Part shown: piece by piece, positions 2,285-22,391 of the stretch
Position numbering within the stretch: the first letter of the stretch is position 1
Layout of the letters: every line of letters begins with the position of its first letter
DNA from: an uncultured Gemmatimonadales bacterium
GTDB taxonomy: Bacteria > Gemmatimonadota > Gemmatimonadetes > Longimicrobiales > RSA9
Assembly: GCA_963783305.1 (NCBI GenBank)
Contig: CAWAMW010000017.1
Coordinates: 479,915 to 543,914, forward strand
DNA length: 64,000 bases
Direction: 5' to 3'
Notes under the pieces: generated by a model
What the model was told of the DNA's origin: nothing
Databases searched by the model: none
Seen by the model: the letters and a program-made list of their open reading frames with translations, nothing else
Translations under genes and position numbers: made by a program

Positions 2285-2994
2285 GCGGCGTCGCGGAGGA
2301 TCAGGGCGTGCTCCCGTCCGGATGGAGAGATGTGGAAGATGCCGTAGCCGTGCGCGCGCAGCATGGCGAGCGCATCCTCTGTGGCCGCGATCCCGATCCC
2401 GGGAAACCGGTGATGGAACTCCACCAGCACGACCCGGGGGCGCAGCCCGGCGTCTATCATGTCGCGGATCACTTCGTACTCGACTCCCTCGACGTCCAGC
2501 TTGAGCAGGTGGATGTCATTATGGCCGTGCGCCTCCAGCAGCGTCGGCAGACGACGGACCTCCACTCGATCGCCAGCGCCCTCCTCGTGCTCCCGGACCA
2601 TGCTCTGGGATCCCCAGGGGCTCCTGGACCCGTGGAAGAACGCGCTGCCATCGTAGCCGGCAACGCCCTGGTCCACGTGCCGGAACCGCGCGGGCAGCTC
2701 CTGCCCCCCCAGCCAGGCCACGCTCGAGGGCGTGGGGTCGAAGCCCAGCACGTCCATCTCGAAACGCTCCGCCAGGTGCCGCTCCAGGCGGATGTCGTGG
2801 CCGAGACCGAAGCAGTAGGCGACACCGCCACGGGGCATCAGATCGGGGCAGATCCACCATCCCCCGTGCTCCTCCACACGGCACTCGATCTCCACCCGGC
2901 TCTGCACCTCACTGCCGAGCCACTGCCGTACCCGCCGCTTCGCCCGCAGCACTGAAGGCGCCCGCTCGATCCTCTTCCACCAGTCCGGTCTCAC
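2281..2994 (-). CDS. FkbM-family methyltransferase
   Basis: FGLGHD...GFDPTP, LLKLDVEGVEY, VEFHH; GTG start inferred from GTGA overlap at 2991-2994. Confidence 0.8.
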   Translation of the reverse strand: MRPDWWKRIERAPSVLRAKRRVRQWLGSEVQSRVEIECRVEEHGGWWICPDLMPRGGVAYCFGLGHDIRLERHLAERFEMDVLGFDPTPSSVAWLGGQELPARFRHVDQGVAGYDGSAFFHGSRSPWGSQSMVREHEEGAGDRVEVRRLPTLLEAHGHNDIHLLKLDVEGVEYEVIRDMIDAGLRPRVVLVEFHHRFPGIGIAATEDALAMLRAHGYGIFHISPSGREHALILRDAA

Positions 2995-4178
2995 TCCGCT
3001 CCTTTGGTTGCTTCCGCGTCTCCCGCGGGCGACCCGGCCTCGGCTCGGCTCCCTGCCCGCAGCACCCGTTCCCACTCATCCAGCATCCGCTCGGGGTCGA
3101 ACCGCGCACGGGCGGCCCGGCGCGCCGCCTCCCCCATGGCACGGAGTAGGCCCCGCTCCGGGAGCAGCGCACGCAGCGCCGCTTCCAGATCACCGGGCTC
3201 GAACCCCACCACCACGCCCGGCGCGGTACCCTCGTCCACCGGGGCCAGCGCCTCCCGAGCGCCGCTCACGTCGGTGCTCACTACCGGAACGCCCGCGGCC
3301 AGCGCCTCCAGCATGGCGTTGCTCATCCCCTCCCGGTCCGATGGCAGGACGAACACGTCCATGGCGTCCAGGACAGGGCCCACGTCCTCCTGGTGGCCGG
3401 GAAGATGTAGACGAGCTCCCACGCCCGCGCTCGTGGCCTCCCGCTCCAGCGCGGCGCGCTCAGGACCCTCCCCCACCACAACCGCGTGCGCCTCCGGCAT
3501 CGACCGCAGTACTCCCACCAGCCGGTCGTATCGCTTCTGCGTTGCCAGCCGCCCCACCGACCCCAGCAGCGGCGCGTCCAGCGGGATCCCGGTCATGGCG
3601 CGGAACGAGGCGCCACCGCGCAGCGCGGGCGGGCGCACACCGGTGTGGATGGTGACGGTCTCTCCGGGGAATTCGGGCATGCGCTCCAGGAACCGCTCCC
3701 GCATCCCGTCCGCGTTGAAGACCACCGCGTCGATCCAGTGGCCGAAGACAAAACGGTACTTGGCGTTGCGGGGCATGTCCGTCTCGAGCCCTATGCGCGC
3801 CACGACACGGGGTACGCCCGCAATCCGGGCGGCCAGCGCTCCCAGCCAGAGCTTCCGGAACGTACCGAGGAGGAGCACCTCCGGGCCTCTGCGCCGCAGC
3901 TCCCGGGCAAACCGGAGCGCCTGGTGGATCGCGATGTCGCCCCCCAGATGCTGCCGCCGGGTGAGGATCCCCATGGCGGCCGCCCTCCGCTTCACCTCGG
4001 GGTCACTGCAGTAGAGGCGCACCGCGTGGCCGCGGCCGTCGAGGCCACTCAGGACCCGGGCCAAGGCGATCTCCGCCCCGCCCCATACCGGAGCACCGTT
4101 GTGGGCGGCCACCCGGAGCGGCCGCGCGATCTCGGCCTCCCCCTCCCCTCCTGCGCCCCCCCCGATCGCCCCCGCCAC
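2991..4178 (-). CDS. Glycosyltransferase family 4
   Basis: WGGAE; VLPSDREGMSNAMLEALAAG; start (GTG just after the ABC gene stop) inferred. Confidence 0.85.
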   Translation of the reverse strand: MAGAIGGGAGGEGEAEIARPLRVAAHNGAPVWGGAEIALARVLSGLDGRGHAVRLYCSDPEVKRRAAAMGILTRRQHLGGDIAIHQALRFARELRRRGPEVLLLGTFRKLWLGALAARIAGVPRVVARIGLETDMPRNAKYRFVFGHWIDAVVFNADGMRERFLERMPEFPGETVTIHTGVRPPALRGGASFRAMTGIPLDAPLLGSVGRLATQKRYDRLVGVLRSMPEAHAVVVGEGPERAALEREATSAGVGARLHLPGHQEDVGPVLDAMDVFVLPSDREGMSNAMLEALAAGVPVVSTDVSGAREALAPVDEGTAPGVVVGFEPGDLEAALRALLPERGLLRAMGEAARRAARARFDPERMLDEWERVLRAGSRAEAGSPAGDAEATKGAE

Positions 4179-4179
4179 C

Positions 4180-6024
4180 TCAGCCGACCGCCGGGCCGGC
4201 CGCTTCCATGTCCGCGAACTGGAGCTGGTAGAGCCGTCGATACAGCCCGTCCCGCTCCAGCAGCTCCTCGTGCGTCCCCTGGTCCACCACCGCGCCATCC
4301 TTCATGACCACGATCCTGTCGGCCTTCCGGACCGTGGACAGCCGGTGCGCGATTACCAGCACCGTGCGGTCCTCCATGAGACGCTCGATCGCCTGCTGCA
4401 CCAGAGACTCGCTCTGGGTGTCCAGCGCGCTCGTGGCCTCGTCCAGGATCAGGATGGGCGCATCCCGCAGCAGCGCACGCGCAATGGCGATCCGCTGCCG
4501 CTGACCTCCGCTCAGCCGCGTGCCCCGCTCGCCCAGCACCGTGTCGTAGCCCTCCGGCAGCTGCACGATGAAGTCGTGGGCGTGCGCCGCCCGCGCCGCC
4601 GCCTCCAGCGCCTCCTGCGGCACGTCGCCGGCGCCGTATCCGATGTTGGCACGGACCGTATCGTGGAAGAGGATCGTCTCCTGGGTCACGATCCCCATGA
4701 GCGACCGCAGGTCGCCTGTCCGGAGCTCCCGCAGGTCCGTCCCATCCAGCGTGATCCGCCCCGCGGTCGGCTCATAGAATCGCGGGACCAGGTTGGCGAT
4801 CGTCGTCTTACCCGCCCCGCTCGGCCCCACCAGCGCAACCACATCGCCGCGTCCGATCTCGAGATCGACGCCCCGCAGCACCGGCTCCCCCGGCTCGTAC
4901 TCGAAGCCCACCGACTCCAGCCGGATCGCGTCGTCGAAACCGTCCACCCGGCGGGCGTCCGGTGGATCCGTGATCTCCGGCCGGGCGTCCAGCAGCTCGA
5001 ACGCCCGCTCCGCCGCCGCCAGCCCCGGCTGCACGATGGCCGGGAACTTCCCGAGCCACTTGATCGGCGACAGGATCCGCGCGGCCAGCACCGTGAACGC
5101 GATGAACGCGCCCGGCGCCAGCGTTCCCTCCACCAGCACCTGCCGGCTCCCGAACCAGAGCACCACCAGGAGCGCCGTGGCGATGATCATCTCGTTGGCC
5201 GGTGGGAAGAACTGCCGCCAGCGCTCGTTCCGAACTGTCGCCTTGTACTGCCGCCGCGTGAGCTCCCGGAACCGGGCCTCCTCGTACCGCTCCGACCCCG
5301 TAGCTTTCACCAGCCGCACACCGCCAATCGACTCCTGGATGTGCGACGACACCTCGCCCACCGCGTCCCACACCTTCAGCACCCCCGCCCAGATCCGCTT
5401 CCGGAACCGCTGCCACAGCCCCATCATCACCGGCAGTGCGATGAGCGTCGCCAGCGTCAGCTGCCAGGAGAGGAGCAGCAGCACGACAAGGAACGCCGCG
5501 GCCTGGATCACGTTGCTCAGACCCTGCGCCAGGTTCCGCGTCACCAGCGTGCGGAGCTGGTCCACGTCGTTCGTCACGCGGGAGATGATCTGGCCAGACT
5601 TCGTCCGCTGGAAGAAGCCCAGGTCCATCTCCATCAGGTGCGAATAGATCTCGTCCCGCAGGTCCTTGGTCACCCGCTGTTCGATCACCACGACCACGTA
5701 CAGCTGGATGTACAGCGCGATGTTCTTCAGCAGGAAGATGAGGAACAGGATCACCAGCACGTTCCTGAGTCCCACCATCGGCGCGTCCGGCGGGATCATC
5801 CCCCCCACCACGTCGTTCAGGAAGTCGTACACGCCCCCCTCCCGACCCGCAAAGAGCGATGAGCCCGCCTCCGCTGGATCCCTGAACAGCACCTCCAGGA
5901 ACGGGATCAGCATCGCCATGCTGATCGCGTCCAGCGCGCTGAAGATCGCCATGGCGACGACCGACAGCGCGAAAAGCCCGCGATAGGGCTTCAGGTAGCG
6001 CAGGATTCGGATATAACGACGCAA
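4180..6024 (-). CDS. MsbA-like ABC transporter, fused permease/ATPase (lipid A/LPS flippase-like)
   Basis: N-terminal TM domain, Walker A GPSGAGKT, LSGGQRQR, ILDEATSALD; LPS context. Confidence 0.9.
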   Translation of the reverse strand: MRRYIRILRYLKPYRGLFALSVVAMAIFSALDAISMAMLIPFLEVLFRDPAEAGSSLFAGREGGVYDFLNDVVGGMIPPDAPMVGLRNVLVILFLIFLLKNIALYIQLYVVVVIEQRVTKDLRDEIYSHLMEMDLGFFQRTKSGQIISRVTNDVDQLRTLVTRNLAQGLSNVIQAAAFLVVLLLLSWQLTLATLIALPVMMGLWQRFRKRIWAGVLKVWDAVGEVSSHIQESIGGVRLVKATGSERYEEARFRELTRRQYKATVRNERWRQFFPPANEMIIATALLVVLWFGSRQVLVEGTLAPGAFIAFTVLAARILSPIKWLGKFPAIVQPGLAAAERAFELLDARPEITDPPDARRVDGFDDAIRLESVGFEYEPGEPVLRGVDLEIGRGDVVALVGPSGAGKTTIANLVPRFYEPTAGRITLDGTDLRELRTGDLRSLMGIVTQETILFHDTVRANIGYGAGDVPQEALEAAARAAHAHDFIVQLPEGYDTVLGERGTRLSGGQRQRIAIARALLRDAPILILDEATSALDTQSESLVQQAIERLMEDRTVLVIAHRLSTVRKADRIVVMKDGAVVDQGTHEELLERDGLYRRLYQLQFADMEAAGPAVG

Positions 6025-6169
6025 AACGATTCCTCAGAGAAGTCTCAGCGGCACACCCGGCCCCCGGTCACCGCGCCCGTTGATACCACCTTCTCCCCCC
6101 CAGGGTCCACTCGGCCGAAGGCCGCCCCCGCGAGCGAAGCGAGCCCCCGCGGCCCAACGCCGCCCCCGG

Positions 6170-7726
6170 CTACCGGGGCCGGAGGGTCGCCACCGGAAGC
6201 ACCATCTCCTCGGGAGAGATCCCGCCGTGCAGGAACGAACCCCGGTACCGCGCCTGGTACTCCCGCAGCTTGGTGGGATAGACGAAGAAGTAGTCCTCGA
6301 GGGCGATCAGGTAGTTCGTGGCCATGCGGCCGGGCGGAAACCGGAGCGCGGTCTCGTCATTGACCCCGAACACGGCCCGGGGCTGCTCCGCACGCAGATC
6401 CTGCCCGAACTTGTAGCGCAGGTTGGAGGTCGCGTCGCGGCGGGCGTACACCGTCACGGGCCGCTCGCAGAGGATGGAGCCGTGGTCCGTGGTCATGACC
6501 ACTTCCACGCCCTGCTCGGCGGCCTCCGTGAGGATCCGGAGCGCCGAGGAGCCTTCGAACCACTGCCGGGTCAGCGCCCGCAGACGGGGTACATCCCGCG
6601 CCACCTCCATCAGCAGGCTCGATTCGCTCCGGCCGTGGATGAGCAGGTCCACGAAGTTGAAGACCAGGCTCACGACGCCGGGCTCCTTCATGGCGGTCCG
6701 AACCCGCGCGATGAGGTCGTCCGCCCCATCGTCGCTGAACACCTTCTCGTAGTGCACCGGCACGTCCCGCCCCGTCAGCTCGCGGAGGTGCTGCGAGAAC
6801 AGCTCGTCCTCGAACGCGTTCAGGCTCCCCTCCTCCTGCTCCCACCACTCGGGTCGCCGCTCGGCGATGTCGTCCGGGAAGAGCCCGCTGAAGATGGCGT
6901 TCCGCGAATAGGGCGTAGCCGTCGGGAGGATGCTGGAGTAGAGGTCCTCCTCGATCTCGAAGAGGTCCGTCAGAACCGGCCGGATGACGCGCCACTGGTC
7001 CAGCCGCATGCAGTCGATGACGACGAACAGCACCGGCCGCTCACCCAGGCGCGGGACGAGCCATTGCCGCACCACGTCCGTGCTGAGCGCCGGCCGCGCT
7101 CCCGGCGTCTGGGTGCGCAGCCAGCCCGCATAGCTGTCCCGCACGTGCTCACCGAACTCCCGCCGCAGGTCGTCCAGCAGCGATCGTACGGAGTCCACCA
7201 GGCCGTCCTCGCCCGCCTCCTCCAGTCGCAGCTCCCAGTCGACCAGCTCCGAGTAGATGTCGAAGTAATCCCGCCAACCGCTCGCCCGGTCCTTCTCGGC
7301 GCTCAGCTCGATGAACCGACCGGCGAAGTCCTGCGCGGCCCGCTGCTGCCGCAGCTGCGAGCCCTCCAGCAGCCGGGTCACCACTGAGAGCACCTGCCGC
7401 GGCGAAGCCGGCTTGACCAGGTAGTCATCCACACGGCGGCCGATGGCCTCCTGCATGGTCTGGTCTTCCTCCGATTTGGTCACCATGACCACACGCACAT
7501 GCGGCGCATCCCGACGCAGGTTCCGGAGCACGTCGAGACCGGACCGCCCCGGCATCTGCTCGTCCAGCAGAACCAGGTCGTACGACTCGCGTCCCACCAT
7601 CTCCAGCGCGTCATCGCCGTTCGTGGTGGTGTCCACCTGGTAACCGCGCTGGCGCAGGAAGAGGAGGTGGGGCTCCAGAAGCTCCACCTCGTCATCCACC
7701 CACAGGATCCGACGATCGTTGGCCAT
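6170..7726 (-). CDS. PorX-like response regulator: receiver domain plus PglZ (alkaline-phosphatase superfamily) domain
   Basis: WVDDE...LLDEQMPG...YLVKP receiver; IDCMRLDQW, ILPTATPYSRNAIFSG, FVDLLIHG, TTDHGS, HGGISPEEM PglZ motifs. Confidence 0.85.
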   Translation of the reverse strand: MANDRRILWVDDEVELLEPHLLFLRQRGYQVDTTTNGDDALEMVGRESYDLVLLDEQMPGRSGLDVLRNLRRDAPHVRVVMVTKSEEDQTMQEAIGRRVDDYLVKPASPRQVLSVVTRLLEGSQLRQQRAAQDFAGRFIELSAEKDRASGWRDYFDIYSELVDWELRLEEAGEDGLVDSVRSLLDDLRREFGEHVRDSYAGWLRTQTPGARPALSTDVVRQWLVPRLGERPVLFVVIDCMRLDQWRVIRPVLTDLFEIEEDLYSSILPTATPYSRNAIFSGLFPDDIAERRPEWWEQEEGSLNAFEDELFSQHLRELTGRDVPVHYEKVFSDDGADDLIARVRTAMKEPGVVSLVFNFVDLLIHGRSESSLLMEVARDVPRLRALTRQWFEGSSALRILTEAAEQGVEVVMTTDHGSILCERPVTVYARRDATSNLRYKFGQDLRAEQPRAVFGVNDETALRFPPGRMATNYLIALEDYFFVYPTKLREYQARYRGSFLHGGISPEEMVLPVATLRPR

Positions 7727-7735
7727 TGAGGGAAG

Positions 7736-8812
7736 CTACTCCTCCGTCGGGGACGCCGCGAGGTATCGCTCGTGCGCTCGACGAACTCGCTCCAGCACCG
7801 CTTCCACCGTCACCCGCGACATCCCGTCCGGCCGGTACTCCATGCTCGCCTCGTACTGCTCGCCCTCGTGGCGCGCGTACCCGTCCACCACCAGGTCCTC
7901 GAACGCCCGGTAGGGCCCGTACCGCTTCGGGTTCGTATACCCGTACAGCCCGACCACGGGGGTCCCCAGCGCCCGCGCCAGGTGCAGCGGCCCGGTGTCC
8001 GGGCTGATCACCAGTGGCGCCCCCTCCAGAGTCCAGACCAGACGGCGGAGGTCGTCGCCCAGCGCGTCCACCACCGCCGCGCCGGTCCGCGCCAGGATCG
8101 CATCCGCCATCTCGCGCTCCACGGCCGAGGGGCCGCCCACGATCACCGGCCGCATCCCGAACTCCCTCTCCACCGCATCCATGACCCGGGCGTACCCCTC
8201 CGCCGTCCAGTTCTTCGCCGGCTTGCTCGTCCCCACCACGAACGCGCACGCCGGCCGGCCGAGTGAGTCGAAGAACGCATCGCGGGCAGCCCTGTCCCCA
8301 TCGCTCAGCGGAACACGCCACTCCACCGGCTCCGGGTCGACCCCCAGGTGCTCGAGGAACTCGAAATACTGGTCCTGCACGTGCTGGACGGGGTGGGGCG
8401 CGATCCGCTCGTTGGTCACCAGCCAGTTCAGGTCCCGGGCCCGCCCCCGGTCGAACCCCAGCTTCACGTCCGCACGCGTCAGCGCGGTCAGGAGCCCCGC
8501 CTTCGCGTACACCTGGAGCCCCAGCACCAGATCGAACCGCCGCTCCCGCAGCTCCACCGCCGCGTCCCGGAACGACCGCCACGCCGATAGCCCTCTCCGA
8601 CGACGGAACACCACGAACCGGTCCACCGCCGGATGTCCCCGCACCAGCCGATGCGGCACCGGCTGAATCAGCCACGTGATCCGCGTGTCCGGCCACGCCC
8701 GCTTCAGCGCGTTCACCACCGGCAGCACATGCACCGCGTCGCCCAGCGCGCTGAGCATCACGATGCAGACTTCCGCCGGCGGCTCCTCCCTGAACCTCTC
8801 AACCGCGCTCAT
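7736..8812 (-). CDS. Glycosyltransferase family 9 (heptosyltransferase-like)
   Basis: SALGDAVH, ISPDTGPLHLARAL; paralog of 18-1127; start may be 8830. Confidence 0.9.
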   Translation of the reverse strand: MSAVERFREEPPAEVCIVMLSALGDAVHVLPVVNALKRAWPDTRITWLIQPVPHRLVRGHPAVDRFVVFRRRRGLSAWRSFRDAAVELRERRFDLVLGLQVYAKAGLLTALTRADVKLGFDRGRARDLNWLVTNERIAPHPVQHVQDQYFEFLEHLGVDPEPVEWRVPLSDGDRAARDAFFDSLGRPACAFVVGTSKPAKNWTAEGYARVMDAVEREFGMRPVIVGGPSAVEREMADAILARTGAAVVDALGDDLRRLVWTLEGAPLVISPDTGPLHLARALGTPVVGLYGYTNPKRYGPYRAFEDLVVDGYARHEGEQYEASMEYRPDGMSRVTVEAVLERVRRAHERYLAASPTEE

Positions 8813-8835
8813 ATCCAATGTCGAATGCACAATCC

Positions 8836-8858
8836 GAAATTTGAATTTGAATTTGAAG
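8836..8858. repeat. Short AT-rich tandem repeat (AATTTG)x3
   Basis: gaaatttgaatttgaatttgaag in an intergenic gap of otherwise ~70% GC DNA. Confidence 0.7.
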
Positions 8859-8887
8859 TGGATGCTTCTCTGCTTCCACCCTAGGTG

Positions 8888-9640
8888 TCACCGCTCGATA
8901 CTCGATCCTCCATACCCGTCCCGAAAAGCCTGCACCACCCCATCCGCCAGCCGCCGCCCCGTACTTCGTTCCCACTTCCGCGCCGAGCGCCAGAACCGAT
9001 CCAGCATCCGCCTCCGCGCCCGGTCACCGACCCGGGACCGGATCGACGCCCGGTCCAGATCCAGGATCAACGCGCGCGAATCGCCGGCGGCCCCGGAGTG
9101 CGCGCCGTCGGCGATCAGGATGTTCTTGAGGTTCAGGTCCCGGTGGACGCCGCCCCGCTCGTGCAGCAGCCTCACGACCGAGCCTGCCGCCCGCATGGCC
9201 TGGGCGGGATCGAATGGAGAGGTTTCGAAGAGGACACTCGCCAGGTCACGGGACCCCGCCACGTACTCGGTCACCAGGTCACCCCGGTACCACGGGCCGC
9301 TCCCGTACACGGCTCCGCCCACGTGCCGCGGCGTCGGAACGCCCATTCCCTCCAGCGCCCGTCCCACCCCGAACTCCCGCACCGGTCGCGGAGTGCCCAG
9401 CCGCAGGTAGCGGTCGTCCAGCAGGGACGCGATGGCGCCGCCCCGGTGGTAATGCCGCACCGCCCAGAGCCCAGAGCCCACCAGCGCGGGTACCACGAAG
9501 ACCCGCCCACGGCCTTCCAGCGTGGCTGCTGCCGGGTGCGCCGCCGCCGCATCCGCCAGCGTGCCGGCATCGCGGACCCAGCTTTCCAGCGCCTCGCGCG
9601 CGCCAGGTCGCGCGACGATCTCCGTCGTCCGGTTCAACAC
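8888..9640 (-). CDS. LPS kinase, Kdo kinase (KdkA/InaA/WaaP family)
   Basis: VRHYHRGG, GVHRDLNLKNILI, LILDLD kinase motifs characteristic of KdkA. Confidence 0.85.
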   Translation of the reverse strand: MLNRTTEIVARPGAREALESWVRDAGTLADAAAAHPAAATLEGRGRVFVVPALVGSGLWAVRHYHRGGAIASLLDDRYLRLGTPRPVREFGVGRALEGMGVPTPRHVGGAVYGSGPWYRGDLVTEYVAGSRDLASVLFETSPFDPAQAMRAAGSVVRLLHERGGVHRDLNLKNILIADGAHSGAAGDSRALILDLDRASIRSRVGDRARRRMLDRFWRSARKWERSTGRRLADGVVQAFRDGYGGSSIER

Positions 9641-9811: not shown

Positions 9812-11098
9812 TCAGCCTCTGTCCGGTGCGCCAACGGTAGCGCGCGACCGCGAGCTGGTGGGGGGCGTCGCCCCGGTGCGGAGCCCGGGGCGGAGGTGAG
9901 GACTGCGGGAGTGGCCCAGCTCGATAGGCAGCGCCACACGTACCAGGACGGTCAGGGCGAACAGTCCCATCGCCCAGATCCCGGCCGTCACGGCCAGCTC
10001 GTTCCGGGTCGGGAAGTACTCGACGATCTCGCCCAGGGGAGAGGGAATGAAGCCCGGCACCACCAGCCCCATCCCCTTCTCGATCCAGATGGCCACGAAC
10101 AGCACCAGTGCCGCGGGCATGAGCCAGTGGAAATCGCGCCGGAGCGGGTGGATCGTGAGGATGAGCGTCGCCAGTACGTTCAGCACGATGGCCGTCCACA
10201 CCCACGGCACCAGCGCGTTGTGGCCGTCCAGCCCGAAGAACAGATACTGAGCGTTCAGGCTGTGGTGGGTGGGGAAGTAGAACTTATAGAAGAGCTCCGA
10301 GGCCAGCATGATCAGATTGATCTGGGCGGCCACGGTGGTGATCAGCGCGAGCTTGGAGAACGCGCCGTCGGGGATCTCGTAGCGCGTCTCCATCCGGATG
10401 AATCCGAGCAGTAGAAGCATGAACGCTGGCCCCGCCGTGAACGCCGACGCCAGGAAGCGGGGGCCGAGGAGTGCGGAGTTCCAGAACGGCCGGGCGGGGA
10501 GCCCCGAGAGCAGGAACGCCGTCACCATGTGGATGCTCACGGCCCAGAACACGGAGATGTAGATGAAGGGCACGTACGCTTTCGTCAGCGGCGTACGCCC
10601 CCCGTAGTGGGAGTAGAGGATGTAGAAGGGGATGCCCAGGTTCAGCGCCAGGTAGCCGTTCAGCACCACCACGTCCCAGGCCAGAAGCGAGCGCGGGAAG
10701 TTGAGTCGGCCCACGAACGGGAGCAGGTGCCAGGCGGCGAAGGGGTTGCCGAGGTCGACCACCACGAACGCAAGGCACATGAGCAGGGCGGAGACCGCCA
10801 CTCCCTCGGCGATGAGCACGGCGCGGGAGAAGTCCACGTCCTTGAGCACGTAGGCGGGCAGCACCAGCATCATGGCGGCCGCGGCCACGCCCACCAGGAA
10901 AGTGAAGTTCGAAATGTACAGGCCCCAGCTCACATGGTCGGTCATCCCCGTGGTCTGGAGGCCGTCCCGCAGCTGCACGGAATAGGCGGACGCCCCTGCG
11001 ATCATGATCAGCGTCAGCGCGCCCATCCAGACGTGGTAGCGTCTTGGCCCGGATGTGACGGATCGAAGGGCGTCGTAGAAGAAGTCCTTTAGGTACAT
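9812..11098 (-). CDS. NrfD/PsrC/DsrP-family quinol-interacting membrane subunit
   Basis: WGLYISNFTFLVG, VVDLG, about 10 hydrophobic segments, WIEKG...PGFIP. Confidence 0.9.
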   Translation of the reverse strand: MYLKDFFYDALRSVTSGPRRYHVWMGALTLIMIAGASAYSVQLRDGLQTTGMTDHVSWGLYISNFTFLVGVAAAAMMLVLPAYVLKDVDFSRAVLIAEGVAVSALLMCLAFVVVDLGNPFAAWHLLPFVGRLNFPRSLLAWDVVVLNGYLALNLGIPFYILYSHYGGRTPLTKAYVPFIYISVFWAVSIHMVTAFLLSGLPARPFWNSALLGPRFLASAFTAGPAFMLLLLGFIRMETRYEIPDGAFSKLALITTVAAQINLIMLASELFYKFYFPTHHSLNAQYLFFGLDGHNALVPWVWTAIVLNVLATLILTIHPLRRDFHWLMPAALVLFVAIWIEKGMGLVVPGFIPSPLGEIVEYFPTRNELAVTAGIWAMGLFALTVLVRVALPIELGHSRSPHLRPGLRTGATPPTSSRSRATVGAPDRG

Positions 11099-11104
11099 GA
11101 TCTC

Positions 11105-12229
11105 TCAGTCGGTGAAGTACCAGAACCGGGGCTCGGTGTAGAGGTTCTCCTTGAGCCGGAACACGCGCTTGTTCTCCAGGACCCACCGGATCTCCGAGTT
11201 CGGATCGAGAAGGTTGCCAAAGACCCGGGCGCCCGTGGGGCACGCCTCGGCGCACGCCGGCAGCCGCCCCTCCCGCGACCGCTGGATGCAGAACGTGCAC
11301 TTCTCCACCACGCCCTTCTTCCGCATGCGGTTGCCCAGGTAGTGCTGATTCGGATTCAACTCTTCCACCGGGACTTCCGGAGCGCCCCAGTTGAACCGGC
11401 GGGCCCAGTACGGGCAGGCGCCCATGCAGTACCGGCAGCCGATGCACCAGTCGTAGTCGATCACCGTGATCCCGTCCGGCTCCTGCCACGTGGCCTGGAC
11501 CGGGCAGACGGCCACGCACGGCGGGTTCGCACACTGGAAGCACTGCGTCCCCATGTAGAAGTGCCCCTCCGCCGGGACCTCGTGCTGGTACGTCGCATCC
11601 GCGTGGTCGAAATCGATCACGCCATCCTCCATCTCGAAGATCCGGATGAAGTGGCGGTCGGTGCGGCGGTCGAGATTGTTCTCGTTCACGCACGCCTGCA
11701 CGCAGTTCCGGAACCCCTTGCACTTGGAAATGTTGAACGCGTAGCCGAAGACCACGCCGGGCTGGGCCTCGGTGGTGGAGATGTTCACGTCCACGCCGTA
11801 CCGCAGCCTGGCCAGCCGCTCCAGCCGGAGCACGGTCTCCGCCTTTTCTTCCTCCGTCATCAGCGAGAAGTGGCCCTTGAGGTACTCCTCCCACTCCAAC
11901 ACCTTCGCCTCACGCTCCTCCGCGGTGGCTCCACTCAGCGGCGAGCAGGCCGCCGCCACCTGCGACGCGGCCGCTGTGGCGCCCAGCATCATGCGGAGCG
12001 CGCTCCGGCGATCCAGCGTCTTGTCCAGCACCGTGGAGCCACCCGCCTCCGCGTCCCGGCCGCCACCCCCCGGCGCCCGGTCGCTCCGGGTCGGGACCAG
12101 GGTGGGCGGACCGGACTCCGGCGCCGGCGACAGCCCCGCCAGCCCGCTTTCCGCCAGACTCCGCTCCACCTCGCTTCGGCCCGCATAGCGCAGGACGTCC
12201 TCGAACTCCATATCCCGCGTTCCGCTCAT
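11105..12229 (-). CDS. NrfC/DsrO/PsrB-like iron-sulfur electron-transfer subunit
   Basis: CFQCANPPCVAVCP, CIGCRYCMGACP, KCTFC..PACAEACP; first motif CKGFRNCVQAC; ATGA overlap at 12226-12229. Confidence 0.9.
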   Translation of the reverse strand: MSGTRDMEFEDVLRYAGRSEVERSLAESGLAGLSPAPESGPPTLVPTRSDRAPGGGGRDAEAGGSTVLDKTLDRRSALRMMLGATAAASQVAAACSPLSGATAEEREAKVLEWEEYLKGHFSLMTEEEKAETVLRLERLARLRYGVDVNISTTEAQPGVVFGYAFNISKCKGFRNCVQACVNENNLDRRTDRHFIRIFEMEDGVIDFDHADATYQHEVPAEGHFYMGTQCFQCANPPCVAVCPVQATWQEPDGITVIDYDWCIGCRYCMGACPYWARRFNWGAPEVPVEELNPNQHYLGNRMRKKGVVEKCTFCIQRSREGRLPACAEACPTGARVFGNLLDPNSEIRWVLENKRVFRLKENLYTEPRFWYFTD

Positions 12230-12987
12230 GGGGTGTCTCCTCCGCTCGTGGGGAGCCGGGGGCCCGGGTAGGGATTGCGCGAGGCGATCGCCGGCTGATG
12301 CGGATCGTGGCAGTCGGGGCAGCTCATCACCACTCGTCGGCCACGCCAGCCCTCGAGCCGCTTGCCGTGCGTGCCTGCGGCCCAGTCGTCGGCCTGAGCG
12401 TAGTGGCACTGGGCGCAGAGCCGGTACGCGTGCTCGAGACTGATCCGCTCCCCGCTGGCCAGGACCAGGCTCTGCACGTCGTCCGGGGCGTGGCAGGTGC
12501 TGCAGTGGGTGCCGCTCTCCTCCGGGTGCCTGGGCAGCACATACCGATGGGCGTCCTCGATACGCTCGGCCTGGATCACCGGCCGCCCCGGGCGATGACA
12601 CGAGCCACACGCCTCGCCCGTGGACGGCCGGCCGCGGAGCGAGATGCGAAAGCTCTTCATGCCGAACATTCGTTCGTGGCCCGGTCGGTCAGGTGTGTGG
12701 ACCGCCACCTCGAAGGGCTCGCCCCCAGGTCCCAGTCGCCCCACCACGGGCTCCGATCGCACCACCGCGAGGCCGGGTGGAGACGCCTCCGTCCCGTCGT
12801 CCCCCACCCCATCGACCGGGTCCGATACCTGCCCCGGCGCCCGCTCACCGGCCCATTCCGCCGCCACCCCGTCTCCGGCCGCCGCCGTGTCGCAGCCCAC
12901 GCTCGCCACCAGCAGCAGCGGCAGCAGGACCACTGGCGCCACGGCCACTCCCGTCCGTCCCCACCGCCCCACCTCCTTTCTCCTCAT
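12226..12987 (-). CDS. Tetraheme c-type cytochrome (probable lipoprotein)
   Basis: CGSCH, CSTCH, CAQCH, CPDCH; signal peptide ending SVGC; ATGA overlap at 12984-12987. Confidence 0.85.
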   Translation of the reverse strand: MRRKEVGRWGRTGVAVAPVVLLPLLLVASVGCDTAAAGDGVAAEWAGERAPGQVSDPVDGVGDDGTEASPPGLAVVRSEPVVGRLGPGGEPFEVAVHTPDRPGHERMFGMKSFRISLRGRPSTGEACGSCHRPGRPVIQAERIEDAHRYVLPRHPEESGTHCSTCHAPDDVQSLVLASGERISLEHAYRLCAQCHYAQADDWAAGTHGKRLEGWRGRRVVMSCPDCHDPHQPAIASRNPYPGPRLPTSGGDTP

Positions 12988-13811
12988 CGGTCTCCTCCCG
13001 TCGACGCATCCGAATCGATCCCGGCCCGGCTGAACACGGCCGCCCCGTCGCCCACCTCCACGTGGCACCCCCGACAATTGCTGCGCTCCGGGTGGCCGAT
13101 CCGGATCTCCTCCATGACTCCGATGCCGCCGTGGCACGCGAGGCAGTTCTCCCGCATGTGGATCCGGTGGGGGATGGGCGGAGGCGCTCCCGGCAGCGCC
13201 GGCTCGGGTAGATCGGGCCAGGTCGGCTCCGGCCAATCCACCGGTACGTAGACCGGAGCTTTCCGGTCGAGGGTGTGGCACTGGAAGCAGATCTTCTCCC
13301 CCGCCAGCTCGTCCGGGTAGGGCCGGCCCACCAGCGCATCATCGGGGAGGTGACACTGGAGACAGCCCCCGAGGTCCGGGTGCGGATTCACGGGCGCGTA
13401 CGCGTTGAAGCGGGCCACGAAGCCGCCCCGCCGGTGGCACACGTTGCAGCGTCCGCCCCGGTACTCCTCCAGCGTGAGCCCGTGGGGCACCCTGGGCGGA
13501 CCCCCGGGGAACGCGCGCAGCCGCCGGTACATGGCCGCCGTCCGAGGGTGTGCCCCCCGGCGCGGGTCCGCGTCCGGACGGACGGCGAGCTCACCCGGTC
13601 GGAGGGCGAAGACGCCAGCCTCCCCGGCAATGGGCGTGGCCGGCGCCTCGATGGGGGCCACGGCGGCCTCGTCGGAGACTTCGTGGGCCGGGGCCCCGTC
13701 GGGCGCGATCAGTACTGCGGCGGCCACCATGATGGCGGCCGCGGCACCGATGCCCACCATCCGCCGCGGGAGCTCGCCGTCGTCCGGCTCCCACCCGCCG
13801 GAGTCCCTCAC
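12984..13811 (-). CDS. NapB-like multiheme cytochrome c (5 CxxCH)
   Basis: Two PPxxPH...CxxCH...CxxCH NapB-type units plus a central CFQCH; GTGA overlap at 13808-13811. Confidence 0.8.
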   Translation of the reverse strand: MRDSGGWEPDDGELPRRMVGIGAAAAIMVAAAVLIAPDGAPAHEVSDEAAVAPIEAPATPIAGEAGVFALRPGELAVRPDADPRRGAHPRTAAMYRRLRAFPGGPPRVPHGLTLEEYRGGRCNVCHRRGGFVARFNAYAPVNPHPDLGGCLQCHLPDDALVGRPYPDELAGEKICFQCHTLDRKAPVYVPVDWPEPTWPDLPEPALPGAPPPIPHRIHMRENCLACHGGIGVMEEIRIGHPERSNCRGCHVEVGDGAAVFSRAGIDSDASTGGDR

Positions 13812-16141
13812 GACGCGGCTCCGACCCGCTCGACCCGCACCGCGCAGCTGTAGTCCGGCTGCCCGGAGAGGGGGCAGTGGCTGTCGAGAGTCAGGCGGTG
13901 GATCGGGACGCCCTCGTCGAAGTCCGGCACGAACACCTGGCCGCGCGCGGGTTGCGCACGGTGGTCGATCCGGGCCTCCATCACCAGCGCCCCGCGCCGG
14001 CTGGTCAGTCGGATCCGGTCGCCGGTCCGGATTCCCAGCTCCAGCGCGTCGTCGGCGTTCACTTCCGCGTACGCCCGCGGCACGGCCCGATGGAGGTTCG
14101 GCACGCGACGGGTCAGCGTGCCCGTGCCCGTATGCTCCAGAACGGCGCCAGTGGCAAGCCGGAACGGGTAACTGGCGTCCGGCGACTCGGAGGGTGGCTC
14201 CCACGGGCGCAGCCAGACGCGGGCTCGCCCGTCGGGGAGACCGTAGAAGTCCACCGCGCCCCGCGCAGGATCGGTGGCGGGGTCGTGGGCCGTGCTGAAG
14301 CGCCACCCGGTCTCCCGGCCGTCGACATACGGCCACAACGCCCCCGGCCGACTCCGCAGGACCCGCAGCGGCGGCAGCCGGTCGGCCGGGGCGTCGCGGA
14401 AACGCGCGTACTCTTCCCAGATGCCCGCCGCATGGCCCGCCCGATCCCACGGGAACAGCTTTTCGTGGCCCAGACGCCGTGCGACCTCGATGAGCTGCCA
14501 CGCGTCACCCATGGCCTCGCCCGGCGCCTCGAGCATCCGCTCGAAGTGCTGGATCCGCCGCTCCCCGCTGCCGAACAGGCCTTCCTGCTCGACCCATAGC
14601 GCCGACGGAAGCACCACATCGGCCAGGTCCGTGGTGGCCGTGGGATAGGCATCCGAGACGACGACGAACCGGTCCTCCCGGGCCAGCGCGCTTCGCTGTC
14701 GGTCCAGGTTCGGCAGGTCCACCATGGGATTGGCCCCCTGGATCCAGAGGAACCGGATATCCCCGTCGTCCAACGCCCTGAACATCGACAGGGCATGGTG
14801 CCCCGGCCGCGCCTGGATGTTGGAGACGGGCACGCCCCAGATCCCCGCCGCCCGCTCGCGGTCCTCCCGGCGCACGACGGTGCCCCGGGGCAGGCCGTGC
14901 GCCGACCCGCCGGCCTCGCGCCCGCTTCCGCACCCGCTCGCCTGCGCCGCGAGCGAGAGTGGGCTGTTGCCCGGCGTCCCCACTTTTCCAACCAGCAGGT
15001 GGATGTTGTAGAGCAGGGTGTTCATCCAGGTCCCGCGGGCGTGCCGGTTCACGCTCGCGCCCCAGGCGGTGGTAACGCGCAGCGCCGGGTCGGCGTAGAC
15101 CGACGCCAGCCATCGGATGTCGGCCGCCGGCAGTCCCGACATCCGGGCCGCCCGCTCCGGCGTGTAGTCCGCCAGGAATCGGACCAGGTCGTCGTAGCCC
15201 ACCTCGGCCCCGGCGTCGGGTGTGAGATCCCGATCGGACCGGCCATAGCCGATCCCCGTCTTCCCCTTCCGGAAGCTCAGGTGCCGCTCCACGAAGTCAC
15301 GGTTCACGTGGCCTCGCGCGACGATCTCGTGGCAGATGGCGTTGGCCACGGCCAATCCGCCGTCGGGGGCGAAGAGGAGACCGCGGTCCGCCGCGTAGCT
15401 GGTGCGGGTGGTCCGGGTGCCCACGTCCACAATGCGGCTGCGGGGCTCCTTGTGCCGGTGCTCCAGCACCCGGGAGAACAGCACCGGGTATTCCTCGGCC
15501 ATGTTCGTGTCCCAGAGAACGATCACGTCGGCCTGGTCCAGGTCGTCGTAGCAGCCGATGGGCGCGTCGAGGCCGAAGCTCGCGGTCAGCCCGGCAGCCG
15601 CGCTCCCCGAGGACAGTCGAGCACTCGTATCTACGTTGTTCGTTCCCAGGACGCCCTTGAACAGTTTCGTGGCCACGTACGCCGCGGGAATCGTCCACTG
15701 GCCCGAGCCATAGATGGCCACGCTGTCCTTGCCGTGCCGCGACACCGTCTCGCGCAGTGTCTGCGCAACCAGGTCCAGCGCTTCCCCCATGGGAACCTCC
15801 ACCAGCTTGCCGCCGCGCCGGACCCGGGCGGTGCGCAGGCGGTCCCGGGCGTACAACGCCTGCACGGAGTGGTACCCCTTCGCGCACGCCAGGCCACGGC
15901 TCGCCCGGGACGCGGGATCCCCCCGCACCGCCGCGGCCCGGCCGGCGTCGATCCCCAGGATGAGACCGCAGCCCACGCCGCAGAGGGCGCACGGCGCCTT
16001 CTCCCAGTTCAGGCCCAGTACCCCCAGCGAACGGCCGAGCCCGGCCCCCACCGCCGTCCCCGGCACGAGCGAGGCGGCCGCCATCCCCGCTGATGCCGAG
16101 GCCACCTGCTTCACGAAGGTCCTGCGGTCCGGTCCGCTCAT
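13808..16141 (-). CDS. NapA-like molybdopterin oxidoreductase family subunit, divergent active site
   Basis: Tat signal RRTFVK; KAPCALCGVGC...CAKG 4Fe-4S motif; GSGQWT, GCYDD, NMAE, WVEQEG..ERR colinear with NapA; ARLSSGSA where NapA has ARHCMASA. Confidence 0.85.
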   Translation of the reverse strand: MSGPDRRTFVKQVASASAGMAAASLVPGTAVGAGLGRSLGVLGLNWEKAPCALCGVGCGLILGIDAGRAAAVRGDPASRASRGLACAKGYHSVQALYARDRLRTARVRRGGKLVEVPMGEALDLVAQTLRETVSRHGKDSVAIYGSGQWTIPAAYVATKLFKGVLGTNNVDTSARLSSGSAAAGLTASFGLDAPIGCYDDLDQADVIVLWDTNMAEEYPVLFSRVLEHRHKEPRSRIVDVGTRTTRTSYAADRGLLFAPDGGLAVANAICHEIVARGHVNRDFVERHLSFRKGKTGIGYGRSDRDLTPDAGAEVGYDDLVRFLADYTPERAARMSGLPAADIRWLASVYADPALRVTTAWGASVNRHARGTWMNTLLYNIHLLVGKVGTPGNSPLSLAAQASGCGSGREAGGSAHGLPRGTVVRREDRERAAGIWGVPVSNIQARPGHHALSMFRALDDGDIRFLWIQGANPMVDLPNLDRQRSALAREDRFVVVSDAYPTATTDLADVVLPSALWVEQEGLFGSGERRIQHFERMLEAPGEAMGDAWQLIEVARRLGHEKLFPWDRAGHAAGIWEEYARFRDAPADRLPPLRVLRSRPGALWPYVDGRETGWRFSTAHDPATDPARGAVDFYGLPDGRARVWLRPWEPPSESPDASYPFRLATGAVLEHTGTGTLTRRVPNLHRAVPRAYAEVNADDALELGIRTGDRIRLTSRRGALVMEARIDHRAQPARGQVFVPDFDEGVPIHRLTLDSHCPLSGQPDYSCAVRVERVGAAS

Positions 16142-16845
16142 GACGTCTCCCTACCGCTGGTCCGGGGCAGGACGTGACAGGCCGCACAGGGGCGACCCGG
16201 CTTGTGCTCCCTCTTCTCCTGGTGGCAGAGAAGGCACGCAGGGCGCGCCCGCTCGATACCGACGGTCGTGGCCGCGTCGTGGCAGCCGCCGCCCGCGCAC
16301 GATTCGTGGACCGCCAGCCCGTGGGGTGCGGGGTCCGGGGTGGGGTGGCACCCCGCGCAGTCGGCGTCCGCCCTGTGGTGGTTGACGTGGCACTCGGCGC
16401 AGGACCGCGGGGGCCGGCTCATCCCACCCCCATGACAGTCGAGGCAGGCCACTCCCTGGTGGCGGCCATGCTCGAACGACAGCTCCCGCTCCCGAACACC
16501 ATCCCAGACGGAGAGGGCGAGCGGGACAGCGCGCGTGCGCGGCGCCGTCAGGTCTGCCGGATCGTGGCAGGCAAGGCACCCTGCCGGGGGCTCGTTCCGA
16601 TGGTGGCACGCAGCGCAGTCCGCCGCGGTCCAGCTCATCCGCGACCGGTGCCGCTCGTCCCGGCTGTGGCAGATCTCGCAGTCGACCCGCCGGTGACGCG
16701 CGTGCTCAAACGCGCGCCGCCCCTCGACGGCGCTGACCCCACCCCCCGGGACCGGGCCCTGGGCGCGCAGCGGTGCGGGAACAGGCAGGGCCACCACCAC
16801 GCACAGCGCCAGGACCACCCTCGCGATCCACCCGGAGCGCGCCAT
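16138..16845 (-). CDS. Periplasmic multiheme cytochrome c (8 CxxCH + 1 CX4CH), cytochrome c3/c7-like
   Basis: Signal peptide; FEHxxH repeats; heme motifs counted in the translation; start could be GTG 16881. Confidence 0.85.
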   Translation of the reverse strand: MARSGWIARVVLALCVVVALPVPAPLRAQGPVPGGGVSAVEGRRAFEHARHRRVDCEICHSRDERHRSRMSWTAADCAACHHRNEPPAGCLACHDPADLTAPRTRAVPLALSVWDGVRERELSFEHGRHQGVACLDCHGGGMSRPPRSCAECHVNHHRADADCAGCHPTPDPAPHGLAVHESCAGGGCHDAATTVGIERARPACLLCHQEKREHKPGRPCAACHVLPRTSGRETS

Positions 16846-16917: not shown

Positions 16918-17658
16918 TCACGACCGCCCATGGGTGGCCTTCGGACGAACCTCCGTCGACGGATGACGCCGGTGCCACGCCCGAAGCGTCAGGAGCCCGA
17001 GCACCCCGACGGGCCCTGCAATCCAGACGGTCGCCCCCAGCGCCATGGCCGCCGCCGCCGTGGCGGTGGGCCGGACGCTCGTCCCCCAGATCTCCGGACG
17101 AGTAAACAGGAACGCCGGGGTAAGGACCAGGAGCGCCAGACCCAGCACGAGACCCAGGGCGCGGGCGTCGGGCCAGCGCCGGAACAGGTTGCGAGCGGCC
17201 TCCACGGTCTCCTCGATCGCCCACCACAGGATGAGGGCGGCGGCCAACCAGCCCACCACCGTGACCGCCACCGCCGCCACCCGGCCGCTCATGGCCGAAA
17301 CCGCCGACAGGGTGATCATCATCGCCACGATCCACCCCACCACTACCGCAGGGATGTCGTAGAGTAGCGACAGCGCCAGCCGCCGGAGCGCCCGCTGACG
17401 GGACACGTCGGGGGGACGCCCCAGGTAGGCCAGCAGGGACCCGTGCACGAATCCCACGAGCGAACCGGCGATGAAGAAGACAGAGGTCGTGATGAAACTC
17501 ACACTGGAGCTGAGGCTGCCGGCCGCCACGTGCGCCGTCACCACCAGCGACGCCACCAGGCCGCCGGCGACGCCCCAGGACGTCGCCACCTGCCCCACCA
17601 GCCCCAGCTGTCGAGTAAGGAATCCTGATCCGGTCGGTCCGTCAGCACTGAAGGCCAT
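16918..17658 (-). CDS. Uncharacterised multi-pass membrane protein, first gene of the redox operon
   Basis: About 6 hydrophobic segments; GGAGG RBS upstream; similar to 36041-36538. Confidence 0.75.
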   Translation of the reverse strand: MAFSADGPTGSGFLTRQLGLVGQVATSWGVAGGLVASLVVTAHVAAGSLSSSVSFITTSVFFIAGSLVGFVHGSLLAYLGRPPDVSRQRALRRLALSLLYDIPAVVVGWIVAMMITLSAVSAMSGRVAAVAVTVVGWLAAALILWWAIEETVEAARNLFRRWPDARALGLVLGLALLVLTPAFLFTRPEIWGTSVRPTATAAAAMALGATVWIAGPVGVLGLLTLRAWHRRHPSTEVRPKATHGRS

Positions 17659-21386: not shown

Positions 21387-22391
21387 CTACCCGTAACGTT
21401 CCAGGAACCGCATGAGCGCCGCCTCTTCGGGATAGTACTGGACGGGCTCCTCCGTCCTCACCTCCCGGGGCTCCTTCCGCATGAGCGGCTCAATGGTCCG
21501 CCCCTCCGCCTCGTACTGCTCGAACACCGCCGGGTGGATATACGCGCTCCGGGCGATCGCCGGCGTGTTCCCCAGCTCGCTCGCCACGAGCCGCGCGGTC
21601 ATGACCGTGTTCTTGTGCGCCTCCCGCTCCCCCGAGGCAGGGCCCAGGTCCGACAGGATCGTTGCCGCCCGCACCGTGCCCCCGAACGTCCGCAGGTCCT
21701 TCGACGTGTAGCGCTCGTGCAAAATCTCCTTGATGTACCGGTTGACCGCCCGGGCCGTCACGTTTTCCACCCGTCCGTCCTCGCACCGGTACCGGAACAG
21801 CCGCGGGCCCGGCAGCTCCATCAGATCCCTGATGATCTCCACCAGCGGCGTGTCCGCAACCACCCGGCGATGGTCCTTGCGACGCTTCCCCACATACGTG
21901 AACACGAGGTCATGGTCGCGGATCTCCAGGTGGTTCTTCTTCAGCGTGGCGATCCCGAACGTCTTGTTCTGCTCCGCGTACCGCTCGCTCCCGATCCGGA
22001 AAAAGGCCCGACTGATCAGCCGGACCACCGTCGCCAGCACCTTGCGACGGTCCAGCTCCGTCCGCTTCAGGTCGACATTCGTCGCCGCCCGAAGCTCCGG
22101 CAGCGCCCGCGCGTACATCAGCGCCCGGTCCCACTTGCGACGGTTCCGCTCCGCCACCGCCTCTTCACTGTAGATGTACTGCTTTCGGCCCGCCGCGTCC
22201 CGACCCCACGCCTGCAGCTTCCGCTTCGATGACGGGGCGATGTGTACGTCCGTCCAGCCCGGTGGGATGGCGAGCCGGTCAATGCGATCCAGCCCGGCCT
22301 CCCACACCAGCTCTCCGCCGCTCACTGTCTCATAGGTGAACCCGGAGTCCTTGTCGCCGCCGCGAAACCACCAGCTCTGCTCATCGGTCAT
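21387..22391 (-). CDS. DNA topoisomerase IB (bacterial/poxvirus type)
   Basis: GRDAAGRKQYIY, FRIGSERY, KDLRTFGGT, LGNTPAIARSAYIHP with catalytic Tyr. Confidence 0.92.
   Translation of the reverse strand: MTDEQSWWFRGGDKDSGFTYETVSGGELVWEAGLDRIDRLAIPPGWTDVHIAPSSKRKLQAWGRDAAGRKQYIYSEEAVAERNRRKWDRALMYARALPELRAATNVDLKRTELDRRKVLATVVRLISRAFFRIGSERYAEQNKTFGIATLKKNHLEIRDHDLVFTYVGKRRKDHRRVVADTPLVEIIRDLMELPGPRLFRYRCEDGRVENVTARAVNRYIKEILHERYTSKDLRTFGGTVRAATILSDLGPASGEREAHKNTVMTARLVASELGNTPAIARSAYIHPAVFEQYEAEGRTIEPLMRKEPREVRTEEPVQYYPEEAALMRFLERYG

Follow-up and report, generated by a model that had tools for sequence, protein, structure and literature searches.

This analysis concerns a NapA-like gene on the minus strand of a 64,000-nucleotide stretch of DNA (the window) from an uncultured Gemmatimonadales bacterium (contig CAWAMW010000017.1, positions 479,915 to 543,914). 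The encoded protein (P0001, also used as the query) has lost the molybdenum (Mo) ligand of periplasmic nitrate reductase. Judged by its residues, it likely carries no Mo cofactor and likely no longer reduces nitrate. The explanation we favour, and hold to be probable though far from certain, is that P0001 is a Mo-free NapA-derived scaffold holding a NapB-like pentahaem cytochrome in a wire from quinol to cytochromes. An original prediction, made from the window's letters, had noticed the missing ligand; the recurrent, phylum-wide conversion which is tied to the loss of napD and to a barrel/multihaem gene cluster goes beyond it. Below, G000 denotes the genome carrying the window and L numbers denote fetched loci.

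13808..16141, minus strand: NapA-derived protein P0001, 777 amino acids, with a twin-arginine translocation (Tat) signal, the [4Fe-4S] cysteines Cys51, Cys54, Cys58 and Cys86, Lys88, Tyr90 and Ser177.
15611..15613, minus strand: TCC codon of Ser177, the residue aligned with Cys179 of E. coli NapA.

The reading frame (16141..13808) is intact, free of internal stops and shows a coding-type G+C pattern at the three codon positions (0.72/0.54/0.89). The predicted colinearity with NapA, together with the Tat signal, the four [4Fe-4S] cysteines and the following lysine, was confirmed by the alignments. The PDB matches 3ML1 (E 3e-188) and 2NYA (E 1e-183) are both NapA, 309 of 767 aligned residues are identical with E. 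coli NapA, and the twin-Arg motif lies at residues 6-7. The scores with the NapA models, 712.5 bits for NCBIfam NF010055 (cut-off 904) and 703.1 bits for TIGR01706 (cut-off 930.55), were below the cut-offs, which is a weak test as the intact relatives were not scored and might also fall below. The DmsA-type model resulted in 116 bits vs 712 for NapA, and the QrcB model in 66 bits (cut-off 440). A fused ferredoxin domain, a trait of ActB, was absent from P0001 in the domain search.

Residues 177-178 of P0001 are Ser-Ser instead of the Cys-Met pair of NapA, which comprises the Mo-ligand Cys179 and the adjacent Met. In the pterin-binding patches (212-219 and 718-729), the substitutions Gly213Asp, Met219Glu, Arg720Ala, Trp725Thr and His726Gly were observed; Trp212, Asn215, Glu218, Thr718 and His724 are unchanged. 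Since neither the ligand Cys nor the pterin patches agree with the family, P0001 is, by these defining residues, not a NapA; by sequence it is also not a DmsA/TorA, ActB or QrcB. The advice against annotating it as a nitrate reductase was thereby supported. All the motif changes quoted in the original prediction were found again, among which the change of HRLP to HGLP is not diagnostic: intact homologues vary at position 416 (Arg 41, Ala 34 and Lys 23 of 121 top homologues), so the Arg-to-Gly change there is uninformative.

The TCC codon was read as stated, and a selenocysteine at the ligand site was rejected by it. TGA flags on other napA matches fall outside the ligand site, which reads Cys-Met in those genes. 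A sequencing error was likewise rejected. P0002, a database protein 88% identical with P0001, shares the Ser-Ser and most of the other changes; many of the changes are multi-base; and a public contig covering 14983-15875 has no alternative letter, and so no TGC, at the Ser177 codon, although it possibly derives from the source sample and is then not independent. The AlphaFold model of P0001 had a mean predicted local distance difference test score (pLDDT) of 56.8, with the ligand loop below 50, which is too poor for reading the pocket.

Proteins without the Cys-Met pair at the ligand site are termed Cys-less here. The pair is absent in 27 of 121 sequences (the 120 best database homologues and the query). 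Among the fetched loci with a match over the site, 78 of 196 were without it, nearly all from Gemmatimonadota where a taxon was given; this set does not represent a frequency, its search patterns having been derived from Cys-less sequences. Dereplication at 90% left 210 proteins: 134 close Cys-Met, 6 distant Cys-Met and 70 Cys-less. The ligand position of the 70 is occupied by Tyr (44), Ser (8), Gly (5), His (5), Ala (2), Glu (2), and Arg, Phe, Asp and Cys (one each). Because of this variation, Ser ligation is, as far as the alignment tells, not a trait of the Cys-less family. The databases label these proteins as nitrate reductases.

The frequency was determined with 401 genomes drawn evenly from the phylum Gemmatimonadota, using a napA-like match at E 1e-120 or better. 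Forty-three genomes contained such a gene; tallied by hand from motifs, 22 of these were Cys-less; of the intact ones, 10 had the same operon type, 9 had the order octahaem-napA-tetrahaem, and 2 were other NapA. No second NapA was found in the Cys-less genomes, with two candidates scored per genome. For the query, too, no active copy was found beside the Cys-less gene: G000 has one NapA-like gene, and no NarG scored above the cut-off in 5 genomes. The six genomes of the same genus (72-95% complete) gave no match to P0001. The second napA operon type of the phylum, with an octahaem cytochrome, a Cys-retaining napA and a tetrahaem cytochrome, was seen in L238-L242, L009 and L207-L209. Tyr-type Cys-less operons were also present in L058 and L065, records titled Acidimicrobiaceae and Zixiibacteriota, respectively.

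The substitutions are concentrated at the cofactor site. Positions conserved in at least 95% of the 134 intact homologues were regarded as invariant, resulting in 312 positions, 27 of which belong to the cofactor-site list and 285 do not. The list combines the patches of a review (PMC13223375, available text) with E. coli binding-site numbers. The mean retention in the 70 Cys-less proteins was 56% at the cofactor site and 87% elsewhere; with the 17 review-derived positions alone, it was 52% vs 86%. Fewer than half of the Cys-less proteins retained the residue at 10/27 cofactor-site and 27/285 other positions, and many of the latter 27 fall in the ligand loop or in the funnel segment 396-410. 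P0001 itself differs at 13/27 and 34/285 positions. Compared with NapA, it has lost the ligand Cys and is changed at Asn175, Met180, Gly213, Asp264, Met372, Gln376, Arg720, Trp725, His726, Phe794, Asn802 and Lys819 (E. coli numbers). In the 70 proteins, Arg720 was retained in 10%, His726 in 4% and Asp264 in 19%, and Gly213 was replaced by Asp in 54. The four Fe-S cysteines and Tyr90 were retained in 70/70, Lys88 in 64/70 and the twin-Arg signal in 68/70. Tyr90 corresponds to C. necator Tyr58, which lies on the NapB-to-NapA electron path proposed in the available text of the review (PMC13223375).

In nine lineage groups, besides the ligand site, Met372 and His726 were changed in 9/9 and Asn175 in 8/9 (E. 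coli numbers); the groups were defined by us from the trees, the Cys-Met pair being their only defined trait, and some of them may share an origin. Four distant Cys-less members (G028, G161, G189, G257) were short or gapped in the funnel segment, at about residues 406-446 of the query. Shorter or funnel-gapped Cys-less genes lie at L233:6348-8558, L234:3845-6082, L235:7829-10021 and L219:8062-10368.

The Cys loss was traced on trees built without the active-site columns. With FastTree and 210 rows, 4 changes were needed, all of them forced by well-supported branches. IQ-TREE with 39 hand-picked rows required 7 changes, 4 of them forced, and a single origin appeared in 0/200 bootstrap trees, the bootstrap being unsettled. 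A constraint that kept 10 Cys-less rows in one group against 12 intact ones was rejected by the approximately unbiased test (p-AU 2.5e-7), a result which may rest largely on L112, the sister of which is intact. By these trees, the Cys has been lost at least four independent times; a single origin was rejected by the trees, the bootstraps and the constraint test. The placement of the query's Ser group was unstable: it formed a supported group with intact proteins in the 39-row IQ-TREE analysis and stood beside the Tyr group (support 86) in the constraint-test tree. The sister pair mentioned consists of L227 (G098), with Cys-Met and without napD, and L112, in which Cys, Asn175, Met372 and His726 are lost.

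The ratio of nonsynonymous to synonymous substitutions (dN/dS), a check suggested in the original prediction, was determined by the Nei-Gojobori method with non-overlapping close pairs and revealed purifying selection. The median was 0.16 in 16 Cys-less pairs (0.11-0.32) vs 0.079 in 31 intact pairs; two intact pairs repeat the same genomes, some intact pairs come from other phyla, and in many pairs dS approaches saturation. Gene by gene, the values of Cys-less and intact loci were 0.153 and 0.076 for napA, 0.172 and 0.147 for the pentahaem gene, and 0.139 and 0.125 for the tetrahaem gene, leaving out two intact pairs (an outlier and one of the other operon type); the Cys-less pairs of DsrO and DsrP were too few. 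The query had no close DNA relative, the dN and dS with the nearest one being 0.24 and 0.85. On these substitution ratios, the Cys-less genes are maintained and the relaxation is specific to napA.

The small gene upstream of intact napA encodes NapD (Pfam PF03927, E 4e-11 to 2e-5, five tested). Nap activity in E. coli requires NapD, which has been linked to Mo-cofactor insertion (PMC4159696, available text). A profile made from 74 of these proteins detected napD in 98/109 intact and 1/72 Cys-less loci; loci with at least 450 bases upstream were used (15 dropped, not dereplicated), and the intact count is partly circular. In whole genomes, Pfam NapD was present in 11/401, among these 7/10 with the intact operon and 0/22 Cys-less ones. 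G000 (96% complete) gave no napD match with either the Pfam or the custom profile. Lost cofactor synthesis was rejected as the cause, as moaA and moeA occur in G000 and four relatives. G000 also has a Cys-retaining formate dehydrogenase; MobA-like family matches exist but are not specific. NarG was not above the cut-off in this genome, and a separate alternative complex III (ActB operon) is encoded elsewhere in it.

In the window, the napD slot is taken by an octahaem cytochrome gene, and the operon consists of six minus-strand genes in a row, 4/5 junctions of which are overlapping stop and start codons. Its genes other than that of P0001, and an adjacent one, are:

16918..17658, minus strand: membrane protein with about 6 hydrophobic segments and no Pfam match; operon membership uncertain.
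16138..16845, minus strand: octahaem cytochrome c, 235 amino acids, 8 CxxCH motifs, N-terminal hydrophobic signal; in the napD slot of intact operons.
12984..13811, minus strand: membrane-anchored pentahaem cytochrome c, 275 amino acids, weakly NapB-like by family profile; the NapB-like N-terminal arm motif is kept.
12226..12987, minus strand: tetrahaem cytochrome c, 253 amino acids, 4 CxxCH motifs, likely a lipoprotein as read from the sequence.
11105..12229, minus strand: DsrO/NrfC-like Fe-S protein, 374 amino acids (DsrO model 183 bits, cut-off 200).
9812..11098, minus strand: DsrP/NrfD-family membrane protein, 428 amino acids, with about 9 hydrophobic segments (395 bits with the DsrP model, cut-off 350).

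The stop codon of the octahaem gene overlaps the start of the napA-like gene, and its product is 44% identical with the octahaem cytochrome of a relative's 9-haem/8-haem/barrel/16-haem cluster. A profile of 68 pentahaem cytochromes matched NapB (3ML1_B and 1OGY_B) weakly, with E about 5e-4. No napD, napC or napGH was found in the window operon, and its promoter/terminator scan gave no signal above shuffles. Whether homologues share the Ser and the operon had been raised in the original prediction; the downstream operon is kept, the Ser mostly is not. Three loci of relatives (L218, L221, L222) have a homologue of the 16918..17658 membrane protein close to the operon. In some loci (L236, L246), the DsrO/DsrP module is repeated. 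In 14/23 Cys-less and 3/17 intact Gemmatimonadota loci, the operon has an SPFH/band-7 gene behind it or at its flank (for example L056:16243-17184, L037:8718-9692, L132:16245-17135); the window operon has none beside it.

The barrel/multihaem cluster was compared in the flanks of loci with at least 5 kb upstream (23 Cys-less, 17 intact Gemmatimonadota and 35 other intact). Cytochromes with at least 7 haem motifs were present in 21/23, 10/17 and 2/35, and a 490-residue predicted barrel protein in 16/23, 6/17 and 1/35 of these, respectively. The barrel family has no sequence match in Pfam or PDB. The AlphaFold model of the G000 copy (pLDDT 82.8) has about 22 strands, and its Foldseek matches are to outer-membrane barrels in general, among them porins, ushers and MtrB (6R2Q_B); the Atlas pointed the same way. 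In L219, L220, L222 and L223, the genes for 9-haem, 8-haem, barrel, 16-haem, Cys-less NapA, pentahaem and tetrahaem proteins, and onward, follow each other on one strand. The cluster of G000 is located on another contig than the operon:

G000:C2:439608-444318 (L228:11609-16100), minus strand: 9-haem, predicted 22-strand barrel and 16-haem genes.

A barrel homologue was detected in 22/22 Cys-less genomes, 18/21 with intact NapA and 141/358 without a napA-like match (hand tally), and overall in 181/401. The presence in intact and napA-free genomes means that the link is older than the loss of catalysis and that the conduit is independent of the operon; judged from gene order and the model, the cluster may by itself represent a porin-cytochrome conduit of an undescribed kind. 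The membrane protein at 16918-17658 of the window has a paralogue in another multihaem cluster of this genome (G000:C15:153363-164047, L229), which comprises 17-haem, 11-haem, cytochrome b and 12-haem genes as well as a sigma-54 two-component pair.

Other features of the window include a sensor histidine kinase whose N-terminal domain resembles that of ethylene receptors (PF25487; 17933-19219, minus strand, about 1 kb upstream of the operon), for which no full-length homologue was seen in related loci. A PorX-type response regulator with a PglZ domain (NF052313, above the cut-off; 6170-7726, minus strand) lies among lipopolysaccharide genes (2991-9640), and a bacterial DNA topoisomerase IB is encoded at 21387-22391 (minus strand).

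According to the scaffold explanation, the Tat-exported NapA body, stabilised by its [4Fe-4S] cluster, would support the NapB-like pentahaem cytochrome. Quinol would be oxidised by the DsrP-like subunit, and the electrons would reach the tetrahaem and pentahaem cytochromes by way of the DsrO-like Fe-S protein, leaving through the octahaem cytochrome toward the barrel/multihaem cluster instead of nitrate. The ancestral complex may have had two outlets, its DsrOP-like quinol module and cytochromes feeding both nitrate reduction and the barrel/multihaem cluster; the nitrate outlet would then have been lost and the NapA body retained. NapB wraps around NapA. The two form tight heterodimers (PMC13223375, available text), and the NapB-like arm motif is kept in 47/50 pentahaem cytochromes outside Cys-Met loci. 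A structural role is the likeliest because an Fe-S cluster without Mo leads nowhere; the homologous N7 cluster of the Mo-free NuoG is structural only (PMC5123574, available text). Between the two options of the original prediction, the Mo-free derivative is the better one, and an electron relay through NapA itself is doubtful since its cluster would be a dead end, the scaffold role being more likely. In a wider and only tentative version, Gemmatimonadota would have turned the nitrate reductase complex at least four times into a new quinol:cytochrome electron-export complex. The nitrate-reducing site would die in a fixed order, beginning with Cys179, Met372, His726 and Asn175 and going on to the nucleotide contacts, napD and the funnel, and the empty NapA would hold a double-NapB wire feeding an undescribed 22-strand porin-cytochrome conduit. 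If true, an ActB-like subunit would be seen here at its birth, and a major soil and sediment phylum would have a widespread route of extracellular electron transfer that has gone unrecognised.

Several observations weigh against the scaffold explanation. The p-value of the retention difference between cofactor-site and other positions, 3e-6, is overstated as kin are not independent. The E. coli binding-site numbers beyond those of the review are UniProt-style features; all of them carry the expected residue in E. coli NapA, and the contacts are presumed. P0001 keeps Lys88, Gln148, Trp210, Asn213, Glu216, Gln400, Arg408, Asn471, Ser496, Asp497, Asp546 and His670, all at the cofactor site. The two youngest losses changed merely 4 and 5 of the 27 sites, always the same ones, which could mean remodelling instead of decay. 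With Tyr in 44 homologues, the ligand site is not free within lineages, and C. jejuni NapA variants with Cys replaced by Asp or Ser retain reduced activity (PMC12769810, available text). Regarding napD, it is missing also in 11/109 Cys-Met loci; in the nine genomes with the octahaem, Cys-retaining napA, tetrahaem operon it was undetected at the locus and by Pfam; and G098 has an intact ligand site yet is without napD. The barrel cluster of G000 is not beside the operon, and with the barrel in 9/10 intact-operon genomes and in the 141 without napA, it neither marks nor needs a dead subunit.

The main rival, which we consider unlikely, assumes that Mo/W-bis-pyranopterin guanosine dinucleotide is still bound without a protein ligand, as in the arsenite oxidase AioA and the iodate reductase IdrA, and that a remodelled funnel accepts a new substrate. 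Ligand-free MopB members exist (PMC10100899, available text), as do Cys-retaining NapA types without a detected napD, which are called active; in P0001, part of the cofactor pocket is intact and the genome makes the cofactor. The same first-shell positions changed first in separate lineages and others stayed, which speaks for this rival, but the replacements differ between and within lineages and share no new motif. The poor retention of Arg720, His726 and Asp264 and the frequent Gly213-to-Asp replacement also disagree with a bound cofactor, as do the apparent lack of the funnel sequence in some members and the dN/dS increase in napA only. For advanced members, P0001 being one, this rival has less in its favour. 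Less likely again is a Mo-free protein which is not tied to the barrel/multihaem conduit and serves another periplasmic partner or a redox buffer, with the [4Fe-4S] cluster as a sink or branch point. The barrel is present in all 22 Cys-less genomes and adjacent in 16/23 loci, the cluster and napA have a single transcription direction in L219, L220, L222 and L223, and the octahaem cytochrome beside P0001 is homologous to that of the barrel cluster; for the other partner speak the separate contig in G000, the barrel being more than four times commoner than the operon, the invariant Tyr90 and the mostly kept Lys88, and the richness of G000 in other multihaem genes.

The remaining two explanations are very improbable. 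The Ser-ligated molybdoenzyme of the dimethyl sulfoxide (DMSO)/trimethylamine N-oxide (TMAO) reductase style with another substrate, the other option of the original prediction, found poor support. Ser177 aligns with E. coli DmsA Ser205 and TorA Ser191, and within the query's group Ser is found in each of the five members. But Ser occupies the site in only 8/70, the sisters P0020 and P0055 differ there (Ala and Ser, respectively), and a Cys-to-Ser replacement is one base change; furthermore, DmsA and TorA keep Gly213, Asp264 and the C-terminal His/Arg patch, which are lost in P0001 and variable among the Ser-bearing relatives. The idea of a nitrate reductase gene in decay, which has no function at present and is about to disappear, is largely refuted and slightly less probable still. 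Full-length frames, the complete retention of the Fe-S Cys and the twin-Arg signal in 68/70 across proteins about 67% identical mutually, the dN/dS of 0.11-0.32 in all 16 pairs and the intact overlapping start-stop junctions oppose decay; a dN/dS about twice that of intact napA, the absence of a match in the six same-genus genomes and one Cys-less locus (L236) appearing frameshifted in its assembly are in line with it.

Cys-less NapA is real, recurrent and apparently undescribed: no description was found in the literature searched, which included few subscription papers and no supplements, and the available texts of PMC12769810 and PMC9386147 are silent on it. Published surveys score napAB of Gemmatimonadota as nitrate reduction (PMC11316326, PMC10581226, available texts), and about half of the napA-positive sampled genomes of the phylum (22/43) carry the Cys-less form. 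The recurring loss and the 60-80% identity of intact and disarmed versions make the steps from enzyme to scaffold directly testable. For physiology, an operon kept after the loss of catalysis implies a second electron outlet for the tetrahaem-DsrOP-like module.

P0001 resembles NapA of C. necator (3ML1), E. coli (2NYA) and R. sphaeroides (1OGY) in its colinearity, Tat signal, [4Fe-4S] motif, the equivalents of Lys83 and Tyr58, and the NapB-like partner gene downstream. Unlike these systems, P0001 has no Mo-ligand Cys and scores below the NapA model cut-offs, and its operon has no napD, NapC or NapGH. The napD-napA-pentahaem-tetrahaem-DsrOP-like operon of Gemmatimonadota, Desulfobacterota and others has an identical gene order downstream of napA; it keeps Cys-Met and nearly always napD, whereas the napA of the window is retained but disarmed. 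The DsrOhPh-tetrahaem locus of cable bacteria also resembles the downstream module; in the available text its function is unknown and no napA is described (PMC13047784). The barrel/multihaem cluster is similar to MtrCAB-type conduits in that a predicted outer-membrane beta-barrel is encoded between multihaem cytochrome genes, and differs from them in its approximately 22 strands, the lack of a Pfam or PDB sequence match and its position apart from the operon in G000; a role in extracellular electron transfer is putative.

By analogy, P0001 most likely works like the Mo-free scaffolds of the MopB family (DMSO reductase superfamily), QrcB also being one of these. Further Mo-free members are ActB, NuoG/Nqo3 and FhcB, and the available text of the survey listing them does not mention Gemmatimonadota (PMC10100899). 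In all of these, the fold is kept, the cofactor is lost (for P0001, its sequence and the missing napD strongly suggest this), and the protein is a subunit of a redox complex; ActB, in addition, works with an NrfD-type subunit and multihaem cytochromes. The profile alignment of the G000 ActB and NuoG to NapA was weak, and their pocket residues were not comparable. ActB, NuoG, FhcB and QrcB are ancient, strongly diverged and belong to other branches, in contrast to the present protein, which is 60-69% identical with intact NapA and whose kind has several origins and still displays stages of the loss.

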